From the NCBI GenBank assembly GCA_029263295.1, contig JAJCXT010000055.1, positions 17,085 to 81,084 on the forward strand: DNA of 64,000 bases, written 5' to 3'. The first letter of the stretch is position 1. Each line of letters starts with the position of its first letter. The position numbers and the translations under genes are program-made. This DNA comes from Acidobacteriota bacterium (GTDB lineage Bacteria; Acidobacteriota; UBA890; WLXD01). Under the pieces are notes generated by a model. The model saw only the letters and a program-made list of their open reading frames with translations, was not told where the DNA came from and did no database searches. Positions 6,077 to 54,146 of this stretch are shown here, piece by piece.

Positions 6077-6403
6077 ATGAGTAAAGGAAACTACCTGGGC
6101 GAATTCGAGATCGTGGTGCTCTCGACCTTGCTGCACCTCGGTGAGAACGCTTACGGAATGACCATTCGCTGCGAGATCGACGAGCACACCGGTCGGTCGG
6201 TGTCGATCGGCGCGATCTACGCCACGTTGCGGCGGCTCGAACGCAAAGGACTGGTCGTCTCGCATCTCGGCGAACCGACCGCCGAGCGCGGTGGTCGTGC
6301 CAAGCGCTTCTTCGCTCTCGAGCCGGCCGGTGAAGACGCCGTCGCACGCTCACGCGCGATGTTCGCCCGTCTCTGGAACGACCTTCCTGAGGCGCGCGGC
6401 TAG
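6077..6403 (+). CDS. PadR-family transcriptional regulator (subtype A; module 1, downstream of its permease)
   Basis: 108 aa winged-HTH with 'LGENAYGMTIRCEI...IYATLRRLERKGLV...ERGGRAKRFFAL'. It starts 21 bp after the ADOP1 stop. Confidence 0.85.
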   Translation: MSKGNYLGEFEIVVLSTLLHLGENAYGMTIRCEIDEHTGRSVSIGAIYATLRRLERKGLVVSHLGEPTAERGGRAKRFFALEPAGEDAVARSRAMFARLWNDLPEARG

Positions 6404-9944: not shown

Positions 9945-10185
9945 GGGCAGGCTCCTGGACGGTGTCGGATGAGCGGAATCGATGGGCCGAGATCAATCCA
10001 CAGAAGGGGAGTCGGATATCAGTTCGAAGTATGCCAGATCGAACTGCCGCCAGACCGCGGCGCGGGAACCGCCGGACCGGCTGGCCAGTTCTGACCGCTG
10101 AGACTGATCGGCACGTTCGTCTACGTTCGTGATACTATATCCATATGTGGATATATCTAGCAGTGGGTAGAGCCGGGGTGCGGCT

Positions 10186-12861
10186 GTGAGCCCGGCAGCA
10201 CGCTGGTACGAGCGCATCCTGCGCTTGGGGCCGCGTTCGCTGCGTCGCGACTTCGGCGACGACATGGTGGCGGCATTCGACGCGATGCTCGCCGATGAGT
10301 GCGCCTCTGGGAATCCGCTACCGCGCCTGAGGGTGTGGTCGCGTGTCCTGACCGATCTGCTCGTGTCCAGCCTGAACAGCATCCGGGGCCAGTCCCCCGT
10401 GTATCGAATCCCCCGAAAGAGAACTCCCATGGAATCCCGTTTTCAGGACATTCGTTTCGCTCTGCGCACGATGCGAAGGCAGCCGCTGTTCGCCGTAGTC
10501 GCCATAGCAACGATCGCGATTGGCATCAGCGCTACCGCGACGATCTTCAGCATCGCCAACGGTCTGCTGCTTCGCGCCCCGACCGGCGTGCGCGAAAGTT
10601 CGGAACTGGTGAGCATTCACCGTGTGGCCCAGGACGAAACCGGTTTTCACTCCTTCGGACTACCCGCCTTTCGCCATCTGGCGAGCGCCGACAATGGCCT
10701 CACGAACATGGCGGCCTACGACAGCTTCGGCGGCAGCCTGGTAATCGACAGCACGCCCTATCGCGTTGCCGGCTCGATCGTATCCGCGAACTACTTCGAG
10801 ACGGTGGGCGTTCGCGCGGGCCTGGGGCGCTTCTTCTACCCCGAGGAAGACACCGTGCCCGGGCGCGACCTGGTCGCAGTGATCAGCGATCGTATGTGGC
10901 ACGAGCGCTACCGGGGGGACCCGGACATCATCGGCAGCGAGCTCGTTCTGAACGGCCGCGGGTTCGTGATTATCGGCGTGACCGAGCCTGAATTCATCGG
11001 CCACCTCGCAGCTTTCCTGAACGACGTCTGGGTCCCGTTGTCGGCTCAGGGTCTGATTCGCGGCGCGACAAACCTGTCCGAAGAAGAGGCTTCGGTCGGC
11101 CTGGAGATCGTGGCTCGTCTCGCGCCGGGGTCCAATGTGGAACTGGCCCAGGACGCCATCGACAGGGCGGGCAGCGCGTTTCATGAGCCTCGCGACGAGA
11201 AGTGGTTCGGGGCTGACGTGTACGCCTACGCGCCGATCGTGCCGATCGCACGGCAGGGGCTCAACCTGTTCCTGGCCGCCATGTTCGTGGTCGCCGGCGT
11301 GCTGCTCACCATCACCGCCGTCAACGTCGCGAACATGATGTTGTCGCGCGCCGCCGCCCGGTCGCGAGAGATCGGCGTTCGCTTGGCCCTGGGCGCCACC
11401 CGTGGCCGACTGGTCACGCAGTTGCTCACAGAGAGCGTGATTCTGTTCCTCTGCGGCGGTGTCCTCGGAACGCTCATCACGGTCTGGACAACCGGCCTGC
11501 TGGGGAGCCTCGCCCTGCCAATTCCGATCCCGATGGACCTGCATTTCGCGCCGGATTTTCGAGTCCTGGCGTTCGCGCTCACGATGGCGGCCACCACCGG
11601 CATCGCGTTCGGGTTGTCGCCCGCACTGCACGCCACGCGTGGTGACCTCACCGGCGCGCTCAAGGAGAACGGCACGCCACCACGGCGCCGTCAACGACTG
11701 CGCAGCGTTCTGGTAGTCACGCAGGTGGCCGGCTCCGCATTGCTGCTGGTCGTCGCGGGGTTGCTGATTCGCTCGGCCGGGCGCGTCACCTCACTCGACC
11801 TCGGGCTCGACACCAACGATGTCCACGCGTTCATGCTCGATACCCGCGAGGCGAATCGATCGCCGGACGAGAGTCGGCAGTTCTACGGAACCCTCCTGAA
11901 CGACGCGGCGAGCTTCTCAGGCGTCGACTCGATTGGTGCCATCGATGTCCCTCCGTTGACCGGCAGCAACCAGCAGAGCACGGTGATCCTGCCGGACATG
12001 CCGCCGGAGCCAGAGGTGGGCCTGCGCAAGGTGGAGTTCGCGCAGGTCTCCCCCAGCTACCTCGCCACAATGCGCATCCCGCTGGTGGCCGGCCGCCAGT
12101 TCAGCGACGCCGACACGGCCGACACGCCCAAGGTCGTCATCGTGAACGAGCATCTGGCGAATACCTTCTGGCCCGGTGAGAGCGCCGTCGGCAAGCGTTT
12201 CGCCTTCCGGGCAGCGAACGATCCGATCGACCTCGAGATCGTTGGGGTGGCCCGCGACAGCAAGATCCGAACGCCCGGCGATCAGGCCCGACCTCTGGTC
12301 TACGGCCACTGGGAGCAGTTCGGCGGCCGCGGGTACACGGTTGTGGCGCGCGTCGAGAGCCCGTCCGTGGCACTGATGATCCGCGACTACGTCAGCGAGA
12401 TCGACCCGGTACTGCCGCCGGCGCAGCCCATCGAGTACGCCGAACTAGTGGGCCTGTCATTGCTGCCGGCGAAGATCGCGACGATTCTCGCCACAGTGTT
12501 CGGCGCGGCGGGCCTGCTTCTCGTAGCACTGGGCCTCTACGGCCTTCTAGCCTATTCGGTAGCCCAGCGATCACACGAGATCGGCGTGCGTATGGCGCTG
12601 GGTGCTCACCAGTCCAGCGTGCGGAGCATGATCGTCGGCGACGGGCTCCGACTTACCGTGGTGGGACTCGGCATCGGTCTCCTGGCGGCCGCCGGCCTCG
12701 GCCAGCTCATTCGCTGGATGCTGTTCGGCCTGAGCCCATTCGACCCGGTCACATTCATCAGCATCGCCGTGCTGCTGTTGACCATCGCCGGCCTGGCCTG
12801 CTGGCTACCGGCGCGCCGCGCCGCGGCGACCAACCCCGTCAACGCATTGAGAGCAGAGTAA
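10186..12861 (+). CDS. MacB/FtsX-type duplicated orphan permease (ADOP family) with prefix domain (module 2)
   Basis: 891 aa with a GTG start. The prefix is 'ARWYERILRLGPRSLRRDFGDDMVAAF...LPRLRVWSRVLTDLL'. FtsX block 1 is 'NVANMMLSRAAARSREIGVRLALGA' and block 2 is 'YSVAQRSHEIGVRMALGA'. The C-terminus is 'PVNALRAE'. Confidence 0.85.
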   Translation: MSPAARWYERILRLGPRSLRRDFGDDMVAAFDAMLADECASGNPLPRLRVWSRVLTDLLVSSLNSIRGQSPVYRIPRKRTPMESRFQDIRFALRTMRRQPLFAVVAIATIAIGISATATIFSIANGLLLRAPTGVRESSELVSIHRVAQDETGFHSFGLPAFRHLASADNGLTNMAAYDSFGGSLVIDSTPYRVAGSIVSANYFETVGVRAGLGRFFYPEEDTVPGRDLVAVISDRMWHERYRGDPDIIGSELVLNGRGFVIIGVTEPEFIGHLAAFLNDVWVPLSAQGLIRGATNLSEEEASVGLEIVARLAPGSNVELAQDAIDRAGSAFHEPRDEKWFGADVYAYAPIVPIARQGLNLFLAAMFVVAGVLLTITAVNVANMMLSRAAARSREIGVRLALGATRGRLVTQLLTESVILFLCGGVLGTLITVWTTGLLGSLALPIPIPMDLHFAPDFRVLAFALTMAATTGIAFGLSPALHATRGDLTGALKENGTPPRRRQRLRSVLVVTQVAGSALLLVVAGLLIRSAGRVTSLDLGLDTNDVHAFMLDTREANRSPDESRQFYGTLLNDAASFSGVDSIGAIDVPPLTGSNQQSTVILPDMPPEPEVGLRKVEFAQVSPSYLATMRIPLVAGRQFSDADTADTPKVVIVNEHLANTFWPGESAVGKRFAFRAANDPIDLEIVGVARDSKIRTPGDQARPLVYGHWEQFGGRGYTVVARVESPSVALMIRDYVSEIDPVLPPAQPIEYAELVGLSLLPAKIATILATVFGAAGLLLVALGLYGLLAYSVAQRSHEIGVRMALGAHQSSVRSMIVGDGLRLTVVGLGIGLLAAAGLGQLIRWMLFGLSPFDPVTFISIAVLLLTIAGLACWLPARRAAATNPVNALRAE

Positions 12862-12866
12862 GCACG

Positions 12867-13175
12867 ATGAGCCAACCGTTGCGCCCGCTGGTGTTCCAGA
12901 TTCTCCTGATCCTCAACGAGGAGGAAACACACGGCTACGGAATCATGAAAGCCGTTAACGAACGCACAGGCCGTAAGACGATCCTGGGACCGGCCACGCT
13001 CTACCGCACGCTCGGACAGATGCGTGACCAGGGACTGATCGACGAGACCCCCACCGACGATGAGCGGCGCCGCGTCTACACGCTGAGCGAAGAAGGGCGC
13101 CGCATGGCCCGGGACGAGGCCGAGCGCATGGCGATGCTCGTGGAACGGGCGCGCGCCGGGCGGCTCCTTGGCTAG
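12867..13175 (+). CDS. PadR-family transcriptional regulator (subtype B; module 2, downstream of its permease)
   Basis: 102 aa with 'LVFQILLILNEEETHGYGIMKAVNERTG...LYRTLGQMRDQGLI...RRVYTLSEEG'. It lies 5 bp after the ADOP2 stop. Confidence 0.85.
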   Translation: MSQPLRPLVFQILLILNEEETHGYGIMKAVNERTGRKTILGPATLYRTLGQMRDQGLIDETPTDDERRRVYTLSEEGRRMARDEAERMAMLVERARAGRLLG

Positions 13176-28661: not shown

Positions 28662-30053
28662 ATGACCACCACCAAGACGGCACTCATCGGCACGGCCCTC
28701 ACGCTCGTACTTGGACTGCAAGTCCCATCGGCGTTCGGTACGCCCGGCAGCGCGCGCCTGGAGGGCAACACCACCGCATTCATCAACGTTCATGTCGTGA
28801 GCATGAACCCGGCCCAGAAGAAGCCGTTGCTGAGGCGACAGACCGTCATCGTGCAGGACGGTCGCATCGTGGAGATCGGCAAAGCGAAAAGGGTCACCGT
28901 GCCGGACGGCGCCGAGATCATCAACGGCAAAGGCAAGCTCTACGTCCTGCCCGGGCTCGTCGACATGCACGTACACAACCGTGACGTGCTCGCACTGCCG
29001 GAAGACGTGACGCCTGAGGACATCTACACGATGTACTTCGCCAACGGCATCACGACGGTGCTCGACATGGCGGGGTTCAAGCAGGCCTTCCAGTGGAAGA
29101 AGGACATCGACCGCGGCAAGGTCCTTGGACCAGATTTCAACTTCACCAGTCCACTAATCGACGAGAGAGACTACGCCAGCCTAGCGCAGCTGGAATCGAC
29201 GATCAGCAAGTGGGTGAAGAGAGGCTACCCGTACATCAAGTCGCACGCCATCGCCGATCCAGCAACGCTCACGGCGATCCACAGCCTGGCCAACAAACTC
29301 GAAATACCGGTAATCGGCCACGCGCTGCGGCCGGGCTCACCGATCCAGGACACCCTGGCTCACGACCCCCTCATGATCGCCCACATCGAGGAGATCCTGA
29401 GCACCAGCGTCACCTCTCAGGTCGACTTCGAGGGACAGCTCGCGACACCGCTTCGCGACGTGGCCGCGAGCCGTGTGTGGGTGACGACCACCAATACCGT
29501 GTACGAGATCATCGCCAACACGGTAGACGACGACGCTTTCGCCAGGCTGCTGGGGCGCCCCGAGATGAAGTACATCCCACCCACCGCACGGTCACTGTGG
29601 GAGTTTCAGAACAAGTTCCGAGATCCGAGTTTCGGGGGCGACCGCGACTTCTGGATGGCACAACTCGCCATCGAGTCGTACATCGCAAACCAGCTCGTCG
29701 AACTCGGCGCGCTCGATCGCCTGCTACTGGGCTCAGACGCCGGCGGCCCGGAGCTGGTGCTCCCCGGCTTCTCGATCCATGACGAACTGCGCCTGTTGGT
29801 CGAGGCCGGGCTATCCCCGTGGGAGGCGACCCTGACCGGTACCTACAACCCGTCCGTGTTCTTCGGGACGATGGACGAGGTCGGCACCGTCGAAGAAGGC
29901 AAGCGTGCCGACCTGCTCCTCGTGAAGGGCAACCCACTGAAGAAGATCGGCCGGCTGGCGAAGCCGGCGGGGCTCATGGTCAATGGAGTCTTCCTGTCCG
30001 CGGCCGATCTTGCCGACCGGCTCGAAGCGCTGGCCGCCAAGTGGGTCAGCTGA
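28662..30053 (+). CDS. Secreted amidohydrolase-family metal-dependent hydrolase
   Basis: Signal peptide 'ALIGTALTLVLGLQVPSAFG'. 'LPGLVDMHVHN' is the HxH metal-binding start of the TIM-barrel amidohydrolases. The C-terminus is 'GKRADLLLV...NPL', typical of the family. Confidence 0.8.
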   Translation: MTTTKTALIGTALTLVLGLQVPSAFGTPGSARLEGNTTAFINVHVVSMNPAQKKPLLRRQTVIVQDGRIVEIGKAKRVTVPDGAEIINGKGKLYVLPGLVDMHVHNRDVLALPEDVTPEDIYTMYFANGITTVLDMAGFKQAFQWKKDIDRGKVLGPDFNFTSPLIDERDYASLAQLESTISKWVKRGYPYIKSHAIADPATLTAIHSLANKLEIPVIGHALRPGSPIQDTLAHDPLMIAHIEEILSTSVTSQVDFEGQLATPLRDVAASRVWVTTTNTVYEIIANTVDDDAFARLLGRPEMKYIPPTARSLWEFQNKFRDPSFGGDRDFWMAQLAIESYIANQLVELGALDRLLLGSDAGGPELVLPGFSIHDELRLLVEAGLSPWEATLTGTYNPSVFFGTMDEVGTVEEGKRADLLLVKGNPLKKIGRLAKPAGLMVNGVFLSAADLADRLEALAAKWVS

Positions 30054-30170
30054 CCGCCCCGCGGCAGTGAATCCTGACTGACGGCAGTGGGTTCAGGGGT
30101 AAATAGCGCGGCTCCGGATCCAGCAGGGCACGCTCGAGGTATTCGCTTGAGTTCATGTATGTCTCTAGAC

Positions 30171-30192
30171 ATATATGATCGCGATCATATAT
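30171..30192. promoter_or_regulatory. 22-bp perfect palindrome ATATATGATCGCGATCATATAT upstream of PadR-4 (candidate operator)
   Basis: It is fully self-complementary. It lies 40 bp upstream of the PadR-4 ATG, with an adjacent TCTAGA-containing imperfect dyad at 30156-30170. Confidence 0.55.
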
Positions 30193-30231: not shown

Positions 30232-30606
30232 ATGAGCGGGACCGCATCAGAATCCGCGATTGGCGAACTCTTACCGTTGCACACGCGCGACTTTCACATC
30301 CTGCTGACATTGCTCGACGGCGACTGTCACGGCTACGGCCTGGTGAAGGCCATCGAGCGGCGCACCGCGGGCGAGCTGAGCCTCGATCCCGCCAATCTGT
30401 ATCGTGCCCTCCAACGGCTGAAGCAGAGCCGCCTGGTTCGCGACGCTGAAGCGCCGATCGCCGGCGAGGCCGATGGTCGCACGCGTCGTTATCACGGCAT
30501 CACCGATCTCGGCAGAACCACGCTCGAGGCAGAGGCTCAGCGCATGCGCCAGCTCGCCGACGCCGTGCAGGCCCGCGGCGCAGTGGCCTCGTCGGAGGAG
30601 TCGTGA
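30232..30606 (+). CDS. PadR-family transcriptional regulator (subtype B; module 4)
   Basis: 124 aa with 'FHILLTLLDGDCHGYGLVKAIERRTAGELSLDPANLYRALQRLKQSRLV'. Confidence 0.85.
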   Translation: MSGTASESAIGELLPLHTRDFHILLTLLDGDCHGYGLVKAIERRTAGELSLDPANLYRALQRLKQSRLVRDAEAPIAGEADGRTRRYHGITDLGRTTLEAEAQRMRQLADAVQARGAVASSEES

Positions 30607-33359
30607 GCCGCGCCGGCGAAGGCATAAGGGCCGCCACGAAGCCACACGAGTGGGAGCCGCCCCGAGTCGGTTTGCGCACGTACCGTGCTGCGTACGCACT
30701 CCTGATCCGCACGCTACCGCGTCCGCTGCGACGCGACTACAGCGACGACATGCTGCGACTCGCCGACGAGTTGTACCGCGACGCCTCCGGACGCGGCCGC
30801 CGCGCCGCATTGACGCTGGCCGCAACGTCGATCACGCGGCTGCTCAGTAGCGCAATCGGCGCACGCATCCATCAACTGCGGGCCCGATTCGGATCCCGCT
30901 CCTCGCTCCCCCGTAGTCCCCGCCACGGAGGCAGTCCCTTGCACGGCCTGCACCACGACATTCGACTCGGCCTGCGCGCGCTCATCCGAGAGCCCGGGTA
31001 CGCAGCCCTCGTGATCTTCACCCTGGCCCTGGCCATCAGCGTCAACAGCACGATGTTCTCGATGGTGCGGATCCTGCTATCGCCACCAGTACCGTTCGTC
31101 GACATCGACAGGTTGGTCTTCCCGTACTCGCGCAATCAGGAACTCAACCGACAACGTGCCGGCGTCTCGCTTCCCGACATGCTGGATCTCGAAACCGCGG
31201 TGCCGGCGGTCTCGGCGCTGGTCGGACAACGTCGCGAGCGCTTCCTCGTAGCCGGATCCGAGGAGCCCGCCCGAGTCGGCGGGGCGACCGTATCGACCAA
31301 CTACTTCGAGGTGCTCGGCATTCAGCTTGAAATGGGACGCGACTTCCTGCCGGAAGAGTCGACGCCGGGGCGAGGTCGGGTCCTGTTGATCACGCATGGC
31401 AGCTGGGAGCGCCGTTTCGGGGAAGACCCGCAGATCCTGGGCCGTGAGGTGTTCCTGGACGGCATCGCTCACACCGTGGTGGGAGTACTCTCAGAGGGTC
31501 TGGAGGCGGGGCCTTCCCGCGCCATCGAGTTGTACCGACCACTGGCGCACGACGAGGCCACGCTGCGGCGAGATCTTCGTGATCTCTCCGTCATCGGCCG
31601 GCTTGCCTCCGGCGCCTCGTTCGAGCAGGCCGATGAAGGGCTCCTCGCCGCATCTCGCCAGTTACAGAGCGCCCACCCGGACAGCAATTCCGCGTGGGAG
31701 GTTGTCACCCTGGGATTCCGCCAGGCAATGGTCGGGACCAACGCGACGATGGTGTTCTCGCTCATGAGCGGCGCGGTCTTCTTCGTGCTGCTGATCGCGT
31801 GCATCAACGTCGCCAACCTCACGCTGGCGCGGGCCACCGCCCGGCGTCGCGAGTTGACCGTGCGGGTCGCCCTCGGCGCGCGCCGCTGGCGTGTGGTTCG
31901 TCAGATTCTCATCGAGAGCACCCTGCTCGCGCTGTTCGCCGCAGGCGTCGGACTGCTGCTGACCCGCGTCACTTTCGACGGCCTCGTCGCCCTGACCCGT
32001 GGGCGTGTGGGCCTGCTTACCGAGATGAACATCGATGGCGGCATGCTGGTGTTCACGTTGCTGTTGTCGCTGGCCACACCGATCCTGTTCGCGCTCTGGC
32101 CCGCTCTCAAAGCCTCGGGGGGAGACTTGAGCACGGAGCTCAGGAGCGGCGGTCGCGGTGCCAGCTTCGGGCGCTCGGAGCGTAGGCGACGCGGCGTTCT
32201 GGTAGCCACACAGATGACCCTTGCGCTGACGCTGCTGATTCTGGCCAGCCTCACCTCCCGCAGCATGTACGAGCTGCTGAGTATCGATCTCGGTTTCGAT
32301 GCAACCGACCTGCTCACCTTCCAGATCGAGCTACCGGAAGCCAACTATCCTGGCCCCGAGGTGGTCGAAGAGTTCTTCGCGTCGGCACGCGACGAGATCG
32401 CCACGATTCCCGGCGTTCAAGACGTAGCGATCGTCAGTCACCGCCCGATCGTCGGCGGCGAGCCCTCGCTGCGCCTGGTAATCGAGGGCAAGTCTGAAGG
32501 GCGAGGCGGCGACAGCGCCATGGCCGCGGTCGTGGCGGCCGACACGGGCCTCTTCGACACGGTCGGCGTCGCACTGTCGCGCGGTCGAGGTTTCGACCCC
32601 CGCGACGACGCGACCGGCGTTCCAGTTGCGATCGTTAGCCAGGCGGCGGTGGAGCGCTACTGGCCAGAGGGGGATGTGCTCGGCAGCCGCATTCAGATTG
32701 GCGCCGACTCGACGGTGGCGTGGCGCCAGGTCGTCGGCGTGGTCTCCGATCTGCGCAACCCCGACGCCAACCTCCCTCCCGAGCCTCACGTCTACCTGCC
32801 GTTCGCGCAGGATCCGCGCCCGACGATGTCATTCCTGGTCAGGACATCCGGATCGATGGACCAGTTTGCGACTGTGGTTCGCGAGCGGGTTTGGCAGATC
32901 GATCCGCTGCAACCAATCGACGACTTCCGCACCATGCAACAAATCCGCCATGACGACCTCAGCGGTGACCTGGCCATGATCGGCCTGATCGCGCTGTTCG
33001 GAGTCGTCGCGTTCGGCCTCGCTGTCGCCGGGGTCTACGGCGTCGTCTCCTACTCGGTCAGCCAGCGGCGTCGCGAAATCGGCGTGCGCATGGCGGTCGG
33101 CGCGCGCAGCCAGGACGTGCTCGGCATGGTGACCGGACAGGGCCTGACCCATGTGCTGGCTGGCGTCGTGGTCGGCCTTGCCCTCGGGCTCGGGATGTCG
33201 CGCTTGATCGCCGGAACGCTCTACGGCGTCAGCGTTGTCGACCCGGTGACGTTCCTCGGGGTTCCGCTGATGCTGCTTGGCGTGAGTCTCGTCGCCTCTA
33301 TCATCCCGGCCCGACGCGCTGCGCGACTCGACCCGGTGGATACGCTCAGGGTGGAATAG
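30603..33359 (+). CDS. MacB/FtsX-type duplicated orphan permease (ADOP family) with prefix domain (module 4)
   Basis: The GTG start overlaps the PadR-4 stop (GTGA). The prefix is 'YRAAYALLIRTLPRPLRRDYSDDMLRLADELYRD'. FtsX block 1 is 'NVANLTLARATARRRELTVRVALGA' and block 2 is 'YSVSQRRREIGVRMAVGA'. The C-terminus is 'PVDTLRVE'. Confidence 0.85.
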   Translation: MSRAGEGIRAATKPHEWEPPRVGLRTYRAAYALLIRTLPRPLRRDYSDDMLRLADELYRDASGRGRRAALTLAATSITRLLSSAIGARIHQLRARFGSRSSLPRSPRHGGSPLHGLHHDIRLGLRALIREPGYAALVIFTLALAISVNSTMFSMVRILLSPPVPFVDIDRLVFPYSRNQELNRQRAGVSLPDMLDLETAVPAVSALVGQRRERFLVAGSEEPARVGGATVSTNYFEVLGIQLEMGRDFLPEESTPGRGRVLLITHGSWERRFGEDPQILGREVFLDGIAHTVVGVLSEGLEAGPSRAIELYRPLAHDEATLRRDLRDLSVIGRLASGASFEQADEGLLAASRQLQSAHPDSNSAWEVVTLGFRQAMVGTNATMVFSLMSGAVFFVLLIACINVANLTLARATARRRELTVRVALGARRWRVVRQILIESTLLALFAAGVGLLLTRVTFDGLVALTRGRVGLLTEMNIDGGMLVFTLLLSLATPILFALWPALKASGGDLSTELRSGGRGASFGRSERRRRGVLVATQMTLALTLLILASLTSRSMYELLSIDLGFDATDLLTFQIELPEANYPGPEVVEEFFASARDEIATIPGVQDVAIVSHRPIVGGEPSLRLVIEGKSEGRGGDSAMAAVVAADTGLFDTVGVALSRGRGFDPRDDATGVPVAIVSQAAVERYWPEGDVLGSRIQIGADSTVAWRQVVGVVSDLRNPDANLPPEPHVYLPFAQDPRPTMSFLVRTSGSMDQFATVVRERVWQIDPLQPIDDFRTMQQIRHDDLSGDLAMIGLIALFGVVAFGLAVAGVYGVVSYSVSQRRREIGVRMAVGARSQDVLGMVTGQGLTHVLAGVVVGLALGLGMSRLIAGTLYGVSVVDPVTFLGVPLMLLGVSLVASIIPARRAARLDPVDTLRVE

Positions 33360-33441
33360 GCAACGGAGCCTTGCTCTGAGATCCGAAGTTCAGGGGCCCG
33401 TGGGTTTTCGGGCTGAGTCGCCGAGACTGAAGGGTAAATAA

Positions 33442-33473
33442 CTCGTATACTAGATATATACCTAGTATACGAG
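33442..33473. promoter_or_regulatory. Inverted repeat CTCGTATACTAG-N8-CTAGTATACGAG upstream of PadR-5 (candidate operator)
   Basis: It has perfect 12-bp arms and an 'atatatac' spacer. It lies about 65 bp upstream of the PadR-5 ATG in an AT-rich island. Confidence 0.55.
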
Positions 33474-33536
33474 CTAACCTTTCGACGCTTTCGCGCGTCT
33501 GACTATCTGAACGTCACCAACCCGCGAGCCCACACA

Positions 33537-33845
33537 ATGAGCAAACTCCGAATGACCTTCACGACCGGCGTGGTCCTGCAGTCTATTTCCAGCGGCCATC
33601 GTTACGGCTTCGACATCATGGACGTGTCGGGACTGCCCGACGGCACCGTCTACCCTGCCCTGCGTCGCCTCGAGGACGCGGGCATGCTCGTGTCCGAGTG
33701 GGAGTCGGAGGAGGCGGCCGGCAAGCGGCCGCCTCGCTGCTACTACGGGCTGACCGCCGACGGCGAGGAAATGCTCGCCACCGCGCGCGCGAAGTTCAGA
33801 GGGCTCGCGGGAGCCATCGCCGACCCGGACGCGGGGGCCAGGTAA
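33537..33845 (+). CDS. PadR-family transcriptional regulator (subtype C; module 5)
   Basis: 102 aa with 'GVVLQSISSGHRYGFDIMDVSGLPDGTVYPALRRLEDAGMLVSEWE...RCYYGLTADGEEML'. Confidence 0.8.
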   Translation: MSKLRMTFTTGVVLQSISSGHRYGFDIMDVSGLPDGTVYPALRRLEDAGMLVSEWESEEAAGKRPPRCYYGLTADGEEMLATARAKFRGLAGAIADPDAGAR

Positions 33846-36569
33846 GTGGGAACGTCAAATACCTTCCGTCCGGAATCTAAACTCGCGCCGAGCACCGGTA
33901 TCGCCTTGCGCGCGGGTCTCCTGGTCGTCCGCGCCGCGTCGTGGGTAGCGCCGGCCCGGGAACGCGATCGCTTTCACCGACAGTGGTGCGGCGAGCTGAG
34001 CTTCGCGGCTGAGCGCTCGACGACCTCCGGCCAAGCACTCCTGCGCCGCTCCCTCCTGGCGCTTCGTGATGCGGTCACTCTGCGCACCCGCCGAGCCCGG
34101 GGCGAGGGCCCCGCCGGCGCCACGCCTCCTGGCGGCCCCCGACCGCGGCTGCTGGAAGAATTCCTGCAGGATCTGCGCTTTGGTTTCCGCTCACTGCGGA
34201 AATCACCCGGGTTCACCGCCGTCGCGATCATGACCACCGCGCTGGGCATCGGCGCAACGACGACCATCTTCAGTCTCGTCGATGGCATCCTGCTCAAGCC
34301 GCTGCCCTACCCGGACCCCGAGCACCTGGTTGTGGTGTGGCCCGAGATGCACTTCTCCAGCGCGTTGATCGACCGCGTCGAACCGAGCCTCGAGGCCTAT
34401 GACGCGTTCTCCGGCTACGGCGACAGCTGGGAGTACACGTGGCTGAGGGACGATGGTGCCGAACGCCTGCGCGGGCCGATCGCCACGGCCGGGTTCTTCG
34501 ACGTCCTCGGAGTACCGATGACGCTCGGCCGCGGGTTCCAGGCCGGCGACGACGCTCCCGGGGCAACGAACGTTGTCCTGAGCGAACGCTTCTGGCGTGA
34601 GCGTCTCGAGGCCAGCCCCGATGTCATCGGCACTGCAATGCGAATCAACGGCCAGGAGCACGTCGTCGTTGGGGTCGGCGGACCGTCGATGAGTGCCTTC
34701 CATCCCGATGCCGACATCGTGATGCCATGGATACTCGATGCGGCGGCGCCGTCGTATCGATCGCAGGATCTGAAGCTCATCGCGCGACTGCGCGCCGGCG
34801 TCGGACCCGAGGCTGCGCTAGCCGAGTTGCGCGTCTTCATCGACGGGCTGAAAACCGAGTTCGAGTTGCCCGTCGACTTCGGCGACGACGCCGAGATCAT
34901 GCCGCTGCAGACCTACCTGGTGGGTGACAGCCGCCCGATGCTGCTACTGCTGTTCGGCGCCGTCGGCCTGACCTTGCTGATCGCCAGCGCCAACGTAGCC
35001 AACCTGTTGCTCGCGCGGGCCCTCGCACGACAGCGTGAGATCGCGGTCCGCGTCGCGCTCGGAGCCCGTGGCGGCAGGCTGGCGAGACAGATCCTCACCG
35101 AGACCTCGCTGCTCGGTTTGCTCGGTGCGATTCCGGGGGTCCTGCTCGCGGTCTTCGGGCTCAGCGTCGTGCTGTCGTTGTTGCCCGCAGACACACCGCG
35201 CCTCGCCAGCGTGGCCATCGACGGCACTGCCCTCGCTTTCTCGATCGGCATCGCCCTGCTCACCGGCTGCGCCGTGGGTGTTATTCCCGCCATCCAGGCG
35301 GCGCGCTCCGACGTGCGCGACACGCTGACCTCGGGCGGGCGTAGTGGCAGCGACAGCGCCGGGCGACAGCGCCTGCGCCGCCTCGTGGTCCTGTCCGAAA
35401 TCGCCCTGGCTGTCACGCTGGTCGCCGCCGCCGGACTCCTCGTCAAGAGTTTCCTGCGGGTCACGGACGTCGACCCTGGATTCCAGCCGGACGGACTGGT
35501 GACCTTCAACATCGACCCTGCCCGGGAGACGCTGGGTTCCGCGTCCGAGGCGCGCCAGTATTACGCGCGCCTGCGGGAGCGGCTCGACGCTCTTCCGGGA
35601 GTCGGCGAGACCTCCTCGGTCTGGAAGGTGGCCTTCAGTGAGGATGGCGGGCTCAACGGTCTGCGGCGCGCGGACAAGCCGCTGAACCCCGACGACCGGG
35701 GTGAACTCGTCCGCTGGCGTCCAGTCGCTAACAACTACTTCGCTACAGCCGGACTCCGCCTGCGGCGCGGACGCCTCTTCGCGTCGGACGACGAGGGCGG
35801 CGAACCGGTTACGGTGATCTCGCAGGCAATGACCGACGTCCTCTTCCCCGGCGAAGACCCCATCGGCCATCAGATCTTGACCACCATGGAACGAGAAGTT
35901 CCGCTGCGCATCATCGGCGTCGTGGAAGACCTGAAACTAGCCGGCCTCGATCGCGCTGGTCCGGCGGTCGCCTATCGGCCCTACGCGCAAGTTGACGAGA
36001 TCATGACGGAATACGGGATGTTCTATCGGCGCTGGATCGTCCTGCGCACGGCCGGCTCACCGGCACCCGGGATCGCTGCGACGATCCGCAACGCCGTGCG
36101 CGAGGAGGACCCCACCGCACTGTTTGCAGACTACGTCGCGATGCCTACCGCCATCAGCAACTCGCTGGCGGCGAGGCGAGCCACCATGACCCTCCTGACG
36201 GTGTTCGCCCTCTCGGCGGTCACCCTTGGCGCCATCGGCATCTATGGCGTGATGGCCTATGCGGTACGGCAACGTGCGCGGGAGATCAGCATCCGCGTGG
36301 CGCTCGGAGCGACGCAGCGACGAGTCATCCGCGATGTGATCAGCGATTCGCTCAAGGTCGCCCTCGGCGGCACTGCCCTCGGTCTTGTCCTGACTCTCGG
36401 CGCGGCGCAGTGGGTGCGAGAGTTCCTGTTCGAGGTCGACGCGTTCGATCCCGTCGTACTCGCAGCGGCGGCCGGGTCCGCGATGCTTGTCGCGGTGACG
36501 GCTTCGTTGCTGCCGGCATGGCGAGCCGCACAGGCGGATCCGGCAACGACCCTCGGAAGCGACGAGTAG
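33846..36569 (+). CDS. MacB/FtsX-type duplicated orphan permease (ADOP family) with prefix domain (module 5)
   Basis: The GTG start directly abuts the PadR-5 TAA. The prefix is 'ALRAGLLVVRAASWVAPARERDRFHRQWCGELSFAAE'. FtsX block 1 is 'NVANLLLARALARQREIAVRVALGA' and block 2 is 'YAVRQRAREISIRVALGA'. The C-terminus is 'PATTLGSDE'. Confidence 0.85.
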   Translation: MGTSNTFRPESKLAPSTGIALRAGLLVVRAASWVAPARERDRFHRQWCGELSFAAERSTTSGQALLRRSLLALRDAVTLRTRRARGEGPAGATPPGGPRPRLLEEFLQDLRFGFRSLRKSPGFTAVAIMTTALGIGATTTIFSLVDGILLKPLPYPDPEHLVVVWPEMHFSSALIDRVEPSLEAYDAFSGYGDSWEYTWLRDDGAERLRGPIATAGFFDVLGVPMTLGRGFQAGDDAPGATNVVLSERFWRERLEASPDVIGTAMRINGQEHVVVGVGGPSMSAFHPDADIVMPWILDAAAPSYRSQDLKLIARLRAGVGPEAALAELRVFIDGLKTEFELPVDFGDDAEIMPLQTYLVGDSRPMLLLLFGAVGLTLLIASANVANLLLARALARQREIAVRVALGARGGRLARQILTETSLLGLLGAIPGVLLAVFGLSVVLSLLPADTPRLASVAIDGTALAFSIGIALLTGCAVGVIPAIQAARSDVRDTLTSGGRSGSDSAGRQRLRRLVVLSEIALAVTLVAAAGLLVKSFLRVTDVDPGFQPDGLVTFNIDPARETLGSASEARQYYARLRERLDALPGVGETSSVWKVAFSEDGGLNGLRRADKPLNPDDRGELVRWRPVANNYFATAGLRLRRGRLFASDDEGGEPVTVISQAMTDVLFPGEDPIGHQILTTMEREVPLRIIGVVEDLKLAGLDRAGPAVAYRPYAQVDEIMTEYGMFYRRWIVLRTAGSPAPGIAATIRNAVREEDPTALFADYVAMPTAISNSLAARRATMTLLTVFALSAVTLGAIGIYGVMAYAVRQRAREISIRVALGATQRRVIRDVISDSLKVALGGTALGLVLTLGAAQWVREFLFEVDAFDPVVLAAAAGSAMLVAVTASLLPAWRAAQADPATTLGSDE

Positions 36570-36615
36570 GCACAGTCGTCACGGGTACTTGCGGACGGTG
36601 ATTTGCTTTTATATA

Positions 36616-36646
36616 TGTAAATCGAATATATTCACTTTGATTTACA
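36616..36646. promoter_or_regulatory. Nested dyad: TGTAAATC-N15-GATTTACA enclosing the perfect 10-bp palindrome GAATATATTC, upstream of PadR-6
   Basis: 'tgtaaatcgaatatattcactttgatttaca' ends 16 bp before the GTG start at 36662. The RBS AGGAG is at 36651-36655. Confidence 0.55.
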
Positions 36647-36661: not shown

Positions 36662-37006
36662 GTGTCTGAACCGCAAGATTTGATTCCGCTTCGACCCGTT
36701 GACCTACAAATCCTGCTCGTGCTTGCCAACGCCAACCTGCATGGTTACGGCGTGATGAAGGCCGTTCGGGAAGAGTCGGGCGGCCGGGTCGGCCTCGAAG
36801 TCGGGTCGCTCTACCGCGTCATCAACCGCCTGCTGGACAGCGACCTGATCGAGCAGGTCGCGCCGGCAGCCGGCAGCGATGACCCGCGACGCAAACACGA
36901 CTACGCCATCACCGAACTCGGCCGTGCCACGGTTCGCGCCGAGAGCGAGCGCCTCGCCCAGGTGTTGGCCACCGCGCGCGCACGCGACCTGGCTGGCCGA
37001 GCGTGA
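36662..37006 (+). CDS. PadR-family transcriptional regulator (subtype B; module 6)
   Basis: 114 aa with 'VDLQILLVLANANLHGYGVMKAVREESGGRVGLEVGSLYRVINRLLDSDLI'. Confidence 0.85.
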   Translation: MSEPQDLIPLRPVDLQILLVLANANLHGYGVMKAVREESGGRVGLEVGSLYRVINRLLDSDLIEQVAPAAGSDDPRRKHDYAITELGRATVRAESERLAQVLATARARDLAGRA

Positions 37007-39835: not shown

Positions 39836-39859
39836 ATATGTAACTAATAAGTTACATAT
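39836..39859. promoter_or_regulatory. Inverted repeat ATATGTAAC-N6-GTTACATAT overlapping the ArsR start codon (candidate autoregulatory operator)
   Basis: It has perfect 9-bp arms. The right arm ends inside the ATG at 39858-39860. Confidence 0.5.
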
Positions 39860-40205
39860 GGAAATCGACTCGTTCGACGCCATCTTCCAGGCGCTCGCCC
39901 ACCCGGCCCGCCGCCGCATGCTCGACATCGTCAAGGACGCGCCCGGCTGCAACGTCAACGACGTTGCAGCCGCGTTCGAGATGAGCCGCATCGGCGTGAT
40001 GAAGCACCTGAGCAAGCTCGAGGATGCGGGTCTGATCCACTCGGAGAAGTCGGGGCGGGTTCGGCGACTCTACTTCAACGTGGTGCCGATCCAGCTTGTG
40101 TACGACCGCTGGACCCACGAGTACAGCGCCTGGTGGGCCGGGCGCCTGGCCGACATCAAGTACGCCGTGGAAACCGGCGCCGACACCGAGGATACCGATG
40201 GCTGA
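39858..40205 (+). CDS. ArsR/SmtB-family transcriptional regulator
   Basis: It has the 'FQALAHPARRRMLDIV...NVNDVAAAFEMSRIGVMKHLSKLEDAGLI' HTH. The track ORF starts earlier at 39789 with a GTG; the ATG at 39858 is preferred. Confidence 0.8.
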   Translation: MEIDSFDAIFQALAHPARRRMLDIVKDAPGCNVNDVAAAFEMSRIGVMKHLSKLEDAGLIHSEKSGRVRRLYFNVVPIQLVYDRWTHEYSAWWAGRLADIKYAVETGADTEDTDG

Positions 40206-51947: not shown

Positions 51948-53450
51948 CTACCTGATTACGAAACGGCCGTGTTGCGTGGGCACGTGGATACCCGGCCCGG
52001 TCGGCACATCCTCGTCCGCAACGTGGTGATACACCACTATCAGGCCCGCATCGATAGCCTGGCCCGCGTCCAGCACGGTCCGCAGCAACCACGGCGTTAC
52101 GAACGCCACGTCCAGATCTCGCTCCCGCAGTACTTCCTCTGTGCTCTGGGTGTCGCCGCTAAAGTAAATGCGCCGGCCGCCCCACAGCACCCGGTACGAG
52201 ATGTGGGCATCGGTGTGGGGCGTGACGACTGGCTCCACCTCGATACCACCGTAGCGAATCGAGTTCTCCCACTGCAGGACGCGGTCGGGGTCGACGACGG
52301 CCGCAATGTCTGGATGCGCGATCAGCTTCAGCTCAGTCCTGGAGAACGTCCGAGCGTCCCAGTGATCCGCATGTTCATGGGTGATCAAGGCCACACCCTG
52401 TTCGACGTCGTCCAGCGCATCCCTGGAGTACTCCATGTATCCGGAAGCCCCAGATTGGTACGGGAAGTCCGTGTACATGGTGTCGAGGCCATCGCTCAAT
52501 CGCATGGCCGCGTTGCCGATAAAGTCCACCTCGATCGGCAGCGGGTCACCCGCCAACGCCCGACTCGAGGCCACGACTCGATCCCAGTCCGTGTCAACGT
52601 AGTCGAAATCGAGAGGCACCCGGAGCCGCTGTTCGATCGCTAGAAGGTCGTCTCGTAGCGGGGAGACGCCACGCTCGGAGCGGCCCCAAGGCGAAGTGGT
52701 CACCGCGGCCGGAACTGTGACGAGCGCTTTGCGGGCCGTGGCGATCGACACCGAGGAGCCGTCATCAGCCACGGCCATGCGCACGCTGCGAATCTCCGCC
52801 AGCCCGATCACGGCAAACAGGGCCCCGAGTGAGCCCGTCAGCGGACGCACCTTCGAACCACGAATGTCGTCGTGGAAGACCTGATCGCCGAAGTCCATGA
52901 GGCGAAAGGTGACGACGCTGTCGTTGTGTACCAGCACCGCGGGTTCCGCGAGCCGGTCTTCGTAGCTGTAGCTGTCCGCGGCGCCGTCGCGCTCCTCGAA
53001 AGCGAGCCGTACGTTCATGGCGAGGTCGGGCATGCGGCCCGCCTTGAGCCGCTCGATTACGGCGCCCTCACGCAGATCGAGCAGCGCGTCCTGCCCGTGT
53101 TCGCGTATCAGGCGCATGAACTCCGGCACCTCGCCGTCGCCCAGGCCGGAGTACTGCCGGAACGCCTGGTACCAGTCCTCGTGGCCAATCAGCACAATCT
53201 CGGCGCCCAGGGCGTCTCGCGACGTCCTCGCCAGACGTAGGTAGACATTGGCCTGAAATCGTCCGCTATTCGCGGTCGTGGCGGCGTCATAGTCGCGTTC
53301 GGGACGCATCGCGGCCAGAATGTTCGCGCGCGAGGCCTTCACCACGACGCCCTGCGGCCGGGCCGATCGCGGTACCGTGCCGTCGGCAGACCCTGCCAAC
53401 AGCATCATCGCGGCGAACGCCGCCAGGACTCGAGAACTACCGATCTTCAT
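51948..53450 (-). CDS. Secreted two-domain protein: an N-terminal uncharacterised domain plus a C-terminal MBL-fold hydrolase
   Basis: Signal peptide 'VLAAFAAMMLLAGSADG'. The C-terminal 'ALITHEHADHWD' matches the HxHxDH MBL motif. The N-terminal ~300 aa ('EIVLIGHEDWYQAF') could not be placed in a family. Confidence 0.5.
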   Translation of the reverse strand: MKIGSSRVLAAFAAMMLLAGSADGTVPRSARPQGVVVKASRANILAAMRPERDYDAATTANSGRFQANVYLRLARTSRDALGAEIVLIGHEDWYQAFRQYSGLGDGEVPEFMRLIREHGQDALLDLREGAVIERLKAGRMPDLAMNVRLAFEERDGAADSYSYEDRLAEPAVLVHNDSVVTFRLMDFGDQVFHDDIRGSKVRPLTGSLGALFAVIGLAEIRSVRMAVADDGSSVSIATARKALVTVPAAVTTSPWGRSERGVSPLRDDLLAIEQRLRVPLDFDYVDTDWDRVVASSRALAGDPLPIEVDFIGNAAMRLSDGLDTMYTDFPYQSGASGYMEYSRDALDDVEQGVALITHEHADHWDARTFSRTELKLIAHPDIAAVVDPDRVLQWENSIRYGGIEVEPVVTPHTDAHISYRVLWGGRRIYFSGDTQSTEEVLRERDLDVAFVTPWLLRTVLDAGQAIDAGLIVVYHHVADEDVPTGPGIHVPTQHGRFVIR

Positions 53451-53546
53451 GATGGTTTTCTATTGTGGACGCATGTTGCGGGCGACGCACGCCGACGAGC
53501 ACGGAATGGAATCGCCGAACACGTTGTCAAAGGCCCGACCCTGTTG

Positions 53547-54146
53547 ATGACTCCCCCCGCGTCCGTCCGGCGAACTCGCGAAGACGATCTCCGACTCGTG
53601 CGGCAGGCGCATGCAGGGGATGAGAGCGCTTTCCGAGAGATCGTCGAGACCTACGAGGGTGCTGTGGCTGCCACGGTGATCGGCATGCTGGGACCTGGCG
53701 GTACCGCGGATGATGTCGGCCAGGAGGTGTTCGTCCGGCTGTGGAAGTCGTTGCACAAGTTCCGCGGCGAGGCCGCGCTAAAGACCTACCTCACCCGCAT
53801 CGCCATCAATCTCTCACTGAACGAACTCAAGCGCCGCAAGCGCTTCATCGATCGCTTCATGAGCCGCGACCGTGATGAGGGTCAAGCTCCCCTGATCGAA
53901 CCCGCGGCCGATGGAGTGGCAGCCGTGGATCGACGCGACACCAGACGTGTCGTTCAGGCGGCGATTCAGCAACTCAAGGCAGAGCACCGGGCCGTCGTCG
54001 TGCTGCGCATGCTAGAGGGGCATGACACCAACGCAGCTGCCGAGATTCTCGGTGTTCGGCCAGGCACGGTAATGTCACGTTTGTCGCGAGCCATGCAAGC
54101 CTTGAAGCCACTGCTGGCAGACCAGTTGGAGAGTCCCGATGAATGA
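53547..54146 (+). CDS. ECF (sigma-70 family) RNA polymerase sigma factor
   Basis: Region 2 is 'FREIVETYEGAVAATVIGMLG...DDVGQEVFVRLW'. Region 4 is 'RAVVVLRMLEGHDTNAAAEILGVRPGTVMSRLSRA'. The start is taken at the internal ATG. Confidence 0.85.
   Translation: MTPPASVRRTREDDLRLVRQAHAGDESAFREIVETYEGAVAATVIGMLGPGGTADDVGQEVFVRLWKSLHKFRGEAALKTYLTRIAINLSLNELKRRKRFIDRFMSRDRDEGQAPLIEPAADGVAAVDRRDTRRVVQAAIQQLKAEHRAVVVLRMLEGHDTNAAAEILGVRPGTVMSRLSRAMQALKPLLADQLESPDE

Follow-up and report, generated by a model that had tools for sequence, protein, structure and literature searches.

A conserved 32-bp dyad as the probable operator of a PadR-s2 regulator and its ADOP permease gene in Acidobacteriota

A 32-bp dyad (33442–33473) in the 64-kb stretch of Acidobacteriota DNA analysed here (the window) is best explained as the operator of the adjacent PadR regulator (33537–33845), which would repress padR and the ADOP permease gene behind it from their core promoter until it is released; we put the probability of this reading at roughly 70%. 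The dyad is extremely conserved, is constantly linked to the padR–ADOP operon and shows no RNA-structure signal, and the AF2 model of the regulator has the PadR-s2 fold. Binding by PadR, repression, the assignment of the promoter and the existence of an inducer are what we infer from comparison of sequences. That the dyad is a protein-binding operator of some kind is very likely, and the adjacent PadR is probably the protein that binds it.

An exact operator, conserved across metagenomes, would provide a direct handle on what one PadR/ADOP permease module responds to. The residue at the start of helix 3 (Ser or Asp), set against the sequence of the box, is in addition a candidate specificity rule for PadR-s2 proteins, a group that also serves as scaffolds and orthogonal switches. 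Beyond this handle and this rule, the dyad would be a routine autoregulatory site, an ordinary bacterial switch with a non-textbook box. Acidobacteriota have a greatly expanded complement of PadR/ADOP gene pairs, and the literature that we searched yielded nothing on PadR/ADOP regulation or on an operator of the TIGR03433 or TIGR03434 family.

The dyad, its operon and its conservation

The dyad, to which no strand is assigned, consists of CTCGTATACTAG (33442–33453), the A+T-rich centre ATATATAC (33454–33461) and CTAGTATACGAG (33462–33473). Re-reading of the window reproduced exactly the sequence and coordinates given in the original prediction, together with the GTATAC that it had noted in each arm (33445–33450 and 33465–33470); these are two of the three copies of this hexamer in the 64-kb window. 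The spacer is also self-complementary apart from the pair 33454 A/33461 C, the sole mismatch over the full 32 bp (15 of 16 pairs fit a palindrome). Strict 12-bp arms, as first described, are present in the window, where both are perfect over 12 nt, but the functional symmetric core comprises 10-nt arms, or 12-nt arms with a free second position. G+C content, which is 65% in the window, dips to 48–50% around the dyad.

The dyad had also been called the longest perfect inverted repeat in the window, a distinction that falls to CGGCTGCAACGTC-AAC-GACGTTGCAGCCG (39944–39972), which has 13-nt perfect arms. This longer repeat is G+C-rich, lies inside the HTH-coding part of an ArsR/HTH_20-type ORF and is probably due to chance. 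The gap before the ArsR/HTH_20-type regulator ORF holds ATATGTAACT-AATA-AGTTACATAT (39836–39859), with 10-nt perfect arms, which is likely to be the operator of that adjoining regulator. We ran 300 first-order Markov simulations of the window and counted perfect repeats with arms of at least 12 nt and a spacer of at most 40 nt. Because 35% of the simulated windows hold at least one such repeat (mean 0.46), the arm length of the dyad by itself is within chance and not significant; its A+T-rich composition is unusual, as only 0.7% of simulated windows contain such a repeat with at least seven A·T pairs. No further copy of the arms was found in the 64-kb window, so no regulon could be defined.

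The dyad is located in the 177-bp gap between an upstream ADOP gene (30603–33359) and padR (33537–33845, + strand), which starts 64 bp downstream of it. The stop codon of padR directly abuts the GTG start of a gene (33846–36569, + strand) for a 907-aa ADOP-family duplicated permease of the MacB/FtsX type, the presumed regulated target. This protein scores 779 bits against TIGR03434 (cutoff 622.3), and MacB_PCD and FtsX each match it in two stretches. From their predicted starts, both this ADOP ORF and the one upstream have N-terminal extensions of about 105–117 aa outside the TIGR03434 model (33846–34160 and 30603–30950), the match beginning at residue 106 in one and at residue 117 in the other.

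At least six PadR genes and seven ORFs of ADOP size occur in the window, and the other PadR/ADOP modules have their own, differing A+T-rich palindromes in their promoter regions. The PadR gene at 30232–30606 has, 40 bp upstream, a perfect 22-bp palindrome, ATATATGATCGCGATCATATAT (30171–30192); ATGTCT-CT-AGACAT (30159–30172) precedes this palindrome, and TAGACA-N16-TATATC around it resembles a sigma-70 promoter whose spacer holds the operator. Upstream of the PadR gene at 36662, TGTAAATC-N15-GATTTACA (36616–36646) overlaps a good sigma-70-like promoter, TTGCTT-N18-TATATT (36603–36632). ATATCCA-TATG-TGGATAT (10137–10154) stands just upstream of the ADOP ORF at 10186–12861. Gene order is reversed in that module, with the PadR gene (12867–13175) after the permease gene, and likewise in the pair at 3366–6056 and 6077–6403.

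A protein search returned 1075 relatives of the window's PadR, and their DNA was drawn from three sources: a scan of a genome collection, look-ups of exact proteins and a metagenome scan with the dyad pattern. The orthologous set comprises the window and 14 other loci (L001, L002, L003, L057, L059–L064, L066, L081, L112 and L135), whose PadR proteins are 67–91% identical to the 102-aa PadR of the window and in which an ADOP gene again follows padR. Ahead of padR, all 15 loci carry CGTATACTAG-N8-CTAGTATACG (with N9 as the spacer in L002), within the consensus C-N-CGTATACTAG/RTAnnTAY/CTAGTATACG-A-G, and the distance from dyad to padR in the 14 others is 38–91 nt. Across the 105 pairs of loci, mean pairwise identity is 100% at the 20 positions of the arms, 33% in the 40 nt upstream of the dyad and 58% at the third codon positions of padR. 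In the window, the invariant left core arm spans 33444–33453 and holds TACT (33448–33451), and the invariant right core arm spans 33462–33471 and holds AGTA (33464–33467); neither is assigned a strand.

Variation is confined to a few places within the dyad. The second position of the full left arm is T in ten loci, C in four and A in one, with its partner unchanged. The centre (33454–33461, no strand assigned) occurs as ATATATAC, GTATATAT, GTATATAC, ATATGTAC, GTAGATAT and GTATCTAT; two TA steps are fixed throughout, and the other positions vary without preserving symmetry, although the dyad of L003 is a perfect 32-bp palindrome. The invariance is not absolute, as a 70%-identical relative (L151) has the degenerate left arm CTAGTAGACTAG. 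The upstream neighbour differs between orthologous loci (in the window another PadR/ADOP module; elsewhere a TPR gene that runs on the opposite strand, a gene for an amidohydrolase or one for a VWA-domain protein), and the padR–ADOP pair downstream of the dyad is constant. With arms invariant in 15 loci, randomized flanks and this constant linkage, phylogenetic footprinting strongly supports the proposal that the dyad is a site for a protein, one that PadR-5, the regulator encoded next to it, could footprint. Fixed arms, diverged flanks and an absence of covariation together point to sequence-specific recognition by a protein, and not to an RNA hairpin or a cruciform.

One locus of the set, L059 (2417–4309), also bears on the history of the modules. 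There, an amidohydrolase gene whose product is 80% identical to that of the window's 28662–30053 is directly followed by the dyad and the orthologous padR–ADOP pair; in the window, an extra PadR/ADOP module (30232–33359) lies between the amidohydrolase gene and the dyad, which suggests that PadR/ADOP modules are gained or lost as units.

Candidate promoters and the mode of regulation

The likeliest promoter of padR–ADOP is one of the ECF-sigma type, with GCTAACC (33473–33479) as the predicted −35 and CGTCT (33496–33500) as the predicted −10 element, both on the + strand. The former belongs to a candidate −35 region, GAGCTAACC (33471–33479), that adjoins the right arm and is asymmetric: its sequence GAGCYAACC is kept in 12 of the 15 loci and has no mirror copy to the left of the dyad. 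As a pattern match alone, the arrangement in the window (AAC at 33476–33478, 17 nt, CGTC at 33496–33499) agrees with the rule for ECF-sigma promoters, by which the −35 element holds AAC, the −10 element holds CGT(C/A) and the spacer measures about 14–17 nt (PMC5758882), and such ECF-like patterns occur across the whole window at chance frequency (seven found, six expected). CGTC is present in 13 of the 15 loci (L063 has GGTC; L002 has none). The spacer between AAC and CGTC is about 16–17 nt and variable in sequence in 11 loci, with CGTC[CT] after it, and CGTC lies further downstream in L003 and L066; the GAGCYAACC/CGTC motif as a whole is missing or shifted in L002, L066 and L151. Transcription would then start at about 33505–33508, which would place the dyad at about −65 to −33.

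An ECF-type sigma gene is encoded about 20 kb away, at about 53463–54146 (tblastn with Escherichia coli RpoE and Bacillus subtilis SigW, E = 1e-19 to 1e-21). Its own upstream region (53380–53600) lacks the AACC-N-CGTC motif.

Other promoter candidates were set aside. A scan for sigma-70 promoters found none in or around the dyad; by eye, TATACT in the left arm makes a fair −10 element, but no conserved −35 element lies 16–18 nt upstream of it in the orthologues. A second ECF-like candidate, GAGAC (33423–33427) followed after 16 nt by the CGTATA of the left arm, was ranked below the downstream one, as its −35 element is found only in the closest relatives. It resembles the TGAAAC-N17-CGTA of L152 and L005, members of a sister group with TATATAG boxes; in these two loci the box sits inside the spacer of this ECF sigma-W-like promoter pattern. 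A further member, L153, has the sigma-70-like TTGACT-N17-TAGAAT, and relatives from Blastocatellia have a canonical box between TTGACA and TATAAG.

Under either of the two ECF-like candidates, the predicted operator would be in contact with core promoter elements, and the transcript would not contain both arms. We hypothesize that a PadR dimer, possibly in a higher-order assembly, recognizes the invariant arms with their TACT-N12-AGTA, the A+T-rich centre probably lending bendability. The dyad would abut or overlap the padR–ADOP core promoter, most likely the ECF-sigma-type one, so that bound PadR blocks RNA polymerase and keeps both padR and the permease gene off. A ligand or signal may then release PadR, as in pairs of a PadR-s2 protein and a transporter such as LmrR–LmrCD. 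Repression by promoter occlusion is proposed because the operator would touch the core promoter; this is the usual logic of such pairs (PMC3506622). The specific promoter and the geometry of repression that goes with it are, in our estimate, an even bet.

The same geometry leaves some room for PadR acting at the dyad as an activator or co-activator that aids an RNA polymerase holoenzyme with an alternative sigma factor, which we regard as unlikely. If the downstream promoter is right, the centre of the dyad falls at about −49, mostly upstream of the −35 element, and sites in that position are usually read as activating, according to the study of cdPadR1 (PMC5050560). Against activation, the right arm directly adjoins the −35 element, so that occlusion is expected, and sister clades have the box within the promoter spacer, a repressor layout. 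Moreover, characterized PadR-s2 proteins beside transporters, such as LmrR and LftR, are repressors (PMC3506622).

The adjacent PadR and competing readings of the dyad

The 102-aa protein encoded by padR, the presumed binder of the dyad, matches the PadR family (PF03551) over residues 13–81 with 46.2 bits (cutoff 27). It is, as the original prediction had it, the divergent one among the six PadR genes of the window that were compared, with HRYGFD in place of the HGYG of three others and the NAYG of two, and eight residues are deleted between its helices 2 and 3. PadR-s2 proteins are defined by a length of about 110 aa and a winged HTH followed by a single C-terminal helix (PMC3506622). The AF2 model (pLDDT 88.4) predicts just such a winged HTH with a single C-terminal helix (helices at residues 8–18, 24–31, 35–47 and 74–92; strands at 51–55 and 68–72). 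Its PDB fold matches are led by cdPadR1 (5dym), followed by LftR (6abt/6abq), Rv3488 (5zi8) and LmrR, all of them PadR-s2; LftR is the best PDB match by sequence. On its length of 102 aa, its modelled fold and these matches, the protein is assigned to PadR-s2.

The DNA-binding motif of PadR proteins has one conserved Tyr where helix 2 begins, another where helix 3 begins and, in strand 2 of the wing, a basic residue (PMC5728393). In 45 homologues of the window's PadR, Y23 is at least 90% conserved and Y39, R64 and R67 are invariant; in the AF2 model, their positions match helix 2 (Y23), helix 3 (Y39) and the wing (R64/R67). By position, these residues would be equivalent to Tyr20, Tyr42 and Lys67 of B. 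subtilis PadR. The subfamily shares the sequence YGFDIMDV[ST]GLP[SD]GTVYPALRRLE.

One position in helix 3 follows the type of box. The residue scored precedes the invariant Tyr of helix 3 by four positions; it is D35 in the window's PadR and the first residue of helix 3 in the AF2 model. Among 51 loci with Ser at this position, 48 carry TATGTAG (canonical ATGT-N8-ACAT), none carries TATACTAG, and five carry TATATAG, each of them together with TATGTAG. Among 20 loci with Asp, none carries TATGTAG, 18 carry TATACTAG and two carry TATATAG. Asp occupies the position in 114 of the 120 best protein matches. By position, D35 is equivalent to His38 of B. subtilis PadR, a residue hydrogen-bonded to the G in the CATGTA half-site (PMC5728393). 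The pattern suggests that the PadR protein and the box switch together, in one or two evolutionary events that carry no statistical weight. Four Gemmatimonadota-like loci (L004, L005, L152 and L153; 61–64% identical) have intermediate operators, CTATATAG-N4-CTAG..., and Asp at the start of helix 3.

Taken together, these data allow a broader account that we offer tentatively, as somewhat less probable than not. A PadR-s2 protein would have been naturally re-specified when Ser gave way to Asp at the base-reading start of helix 3, the box passing from TATGTAG-N4-CTACATA through TATATAG to CGTATACTAG-N8-CTAGTATACG, with half-sites 4 bp further apart. The new box would be linked to a promoter of the ECF-sigma type. 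This pair and at least five other modules in the window, each with a palindrome of its own, would then make up a set of mutually insulated regulator–operator pairs that control paralogous orphan permeases in Acidobacteriota.

The dyad could instead be occupied by some other protein, for instance a nucleoid protein or a second regulator, with the adjacent PadR acting elsewhere. We give this little weight. It is true that 33360–33536 holds no second candidate PadR box such as ATGT-N8-ACAT, so that the PadR assignment is by linkage alone. Yet the dyad co-occurs only with this PadR clade, its arms have no second copy in the 64-kb window, and the type of box switches with Ser-to-Asp at the DNA-reading end of helix 3. 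The metagenome scan bears on the same question. A search for GTATACTAG-N7-10-CTAGTATAC reported 83 loci, and among the 80 examined a PadR ORF stands beside the dyad only in L081, L112 and L135. These three and L134 are the only orthologous loci among the 80; L134, a short record in which no PadR ORF was detected, is identical to L112 in the dyad and its right flank. The remaining loci are low-G+C tandem repeats or unrelated contexts, some of them phage-like, with no PadR nearby. Because most scan loci lack a PadR, the half-site GTATACTAG/CTAGTATAC is not diagnostic alone.

Four high-G+C metagenome contigs (L126, 3683–3753; L108, 11663–11734; L127; and L144) carry two tandem GTATACTAG-N7/8-CTAGTATAC sites about 46 bp apart. 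A conserved ORF of about 210 aa follows the tandem sites in phage-like surroundings, with no PadR gene nearby, and the half-site of the dyad is evidently also used there by an unrelated system.

The original prediction had further allowed for an RNA hairpin in the leader, and the dyad might act as an attenuator, stabilizer or processing site, either in the leader of padR or in a transcript that reads through from the upstream ADOP gene. The sequence does fold well: the stem is 12 bp long, and a 107-nt region folds at −32.9 kcal/mol (z = −5.1 compared with shuffles). Read-through would be possible in the window, as no terminator-like site or U-tract is predicted between the upstream ADOP gene (end 33359) and padR. 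The stability follows trivially from the dyad being a palindrome, and the comparative evidence runs the other way. When a 16-pair hairpin was checked for covariation on an alignment of 14 sequences, 13 pairs were invariant, none had changed on both sides, and each of the three variable pairs loses pairing somewhere (in five, four and two of the 14 sequences). Fixed sequence with unconstrained complementarity marks a protein site rather than a stem. Furthermore, no U-tract follows the stem, no Rfam family matches at E ≤ 1, and the upstream gene is on the other strand in several orthologous loci. No conserved promoter element precedes the dyad; because the conserved promoter-like elements sit inside or downstream of it, the leader would not hold both arms. 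We therefore consider the hairpin very improbable.

Least probable of all is a cruciform-extruding structural element, also suggested originally, or a functionless chance palindrome: each single DNA strand folds at −10.4 kcal/mol and 12-nt perfect repeats are not rare in simulations, but a cruciform needs self-complementarity only, whereas here the sequence is fixed and complementarity is freely lost at the second arm position and in the centre, with no compensatory change, and chance is excluded by arms that stay perfect across loci whose neutral sites are down to 33–58% identity.

Comparison with known PadR operators

The closest parallel to the proposed PadR operator is that of cdPadR1 (CDR20291_0991) of Clostridioides difficile, which in EMSA binds TACT(N11–12)AGTA in its own promoter and needs both the repeats and the A+T-rich spacer (PMC5050560). 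A motif of this type is present in the dyad, as TACT (33448–33451), the 12 nt AGATATATACCT (9 of 12 A or T) and AGTA (33464–33467). The two systems share the PadR-s2 subfamily, with 5dym as the top fold match, and an inverted repeat TACT-N12-AGTA around an A+T-rich centre with TA steps. In both, the site precedes the regulator's own gene, within its own promoter for cdPadR1 and at a predicted promoter in the window. The window's PadR, however, has only about 24% sequence identity to cdPadR1, and the conserved arms of the dyad are longer (10–12 nt), with GTATAC and CTAG sub-palindromes. Each locus of the dyad set has one site, in contrast to the two boxes of cdPadR1. The host is a high-G+C Acidobacteriota bacterium with an ADOP permease gene downstream, and the binder is predicted from sequence.

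The canonical PadR operator is ATGT-N8–10-ACAT (PMC3506622). As with the boxes of B. subtilis PadR/padC, LmrR/lmrCD and bcPadR1, the dyad is a palindrome in or at the promoter of a regulator or transporter operon (PMC3506622, PMC5728393), and its presumed reader is likewise a winged-HTH dimer with two Tyr and a basic wing residue (Y23, Y39 and R64/R67 in PadR-5). The canonical box itself, CTATGTAG-N4-CTACATAG, occurs in more distantly related members of this Acidobacterial subfamily. Unlike that box, the dyad has no ATGT/ACAT pair, none being found in 33360–33536, and 8 nt, as against 4 nt, separate its TAG...CTA elements. Unlike canonical PadR proteins, the regulator has Asp, not Ser or His, at the place of B. 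subtilis His38.

A single B. subtilis PadR dimer reads 18 bp (C-N-T-G-N-A-N6-T-N-C-A-N-G; PMC5728393), fewer than the 28–32 bp of the dyad, which may take one or two dimers. A fit to the 18-bp pattern was rejected: CGTATA...TATACG agrees at four of the five bases that the pattern specifies, but its halves are separated by N16 where the pattern has N6. On the dyad, two overlapping 19-bp half-palindromes would clash sterically.

With the TIGR03433/TIGR03434 systems, the module shares the gene pair and its multiplicity, and its ADOP protein scores above the TIGR03434 cutoff. Unlike TIGR03433 (padR_acidobact) proteins, the window's PadR falls below the curated cutoff (41.8 against 101.8 bits), which indicates that a different PadR lineage was recruited to the same kind of partner. 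Overall, the comparison makes it likely that the dyad is a PadR-s2 autoregulatory operator of a known kind, here in an Acidobacteriota lineage and with arms that are unusually long and perfectly conserved.
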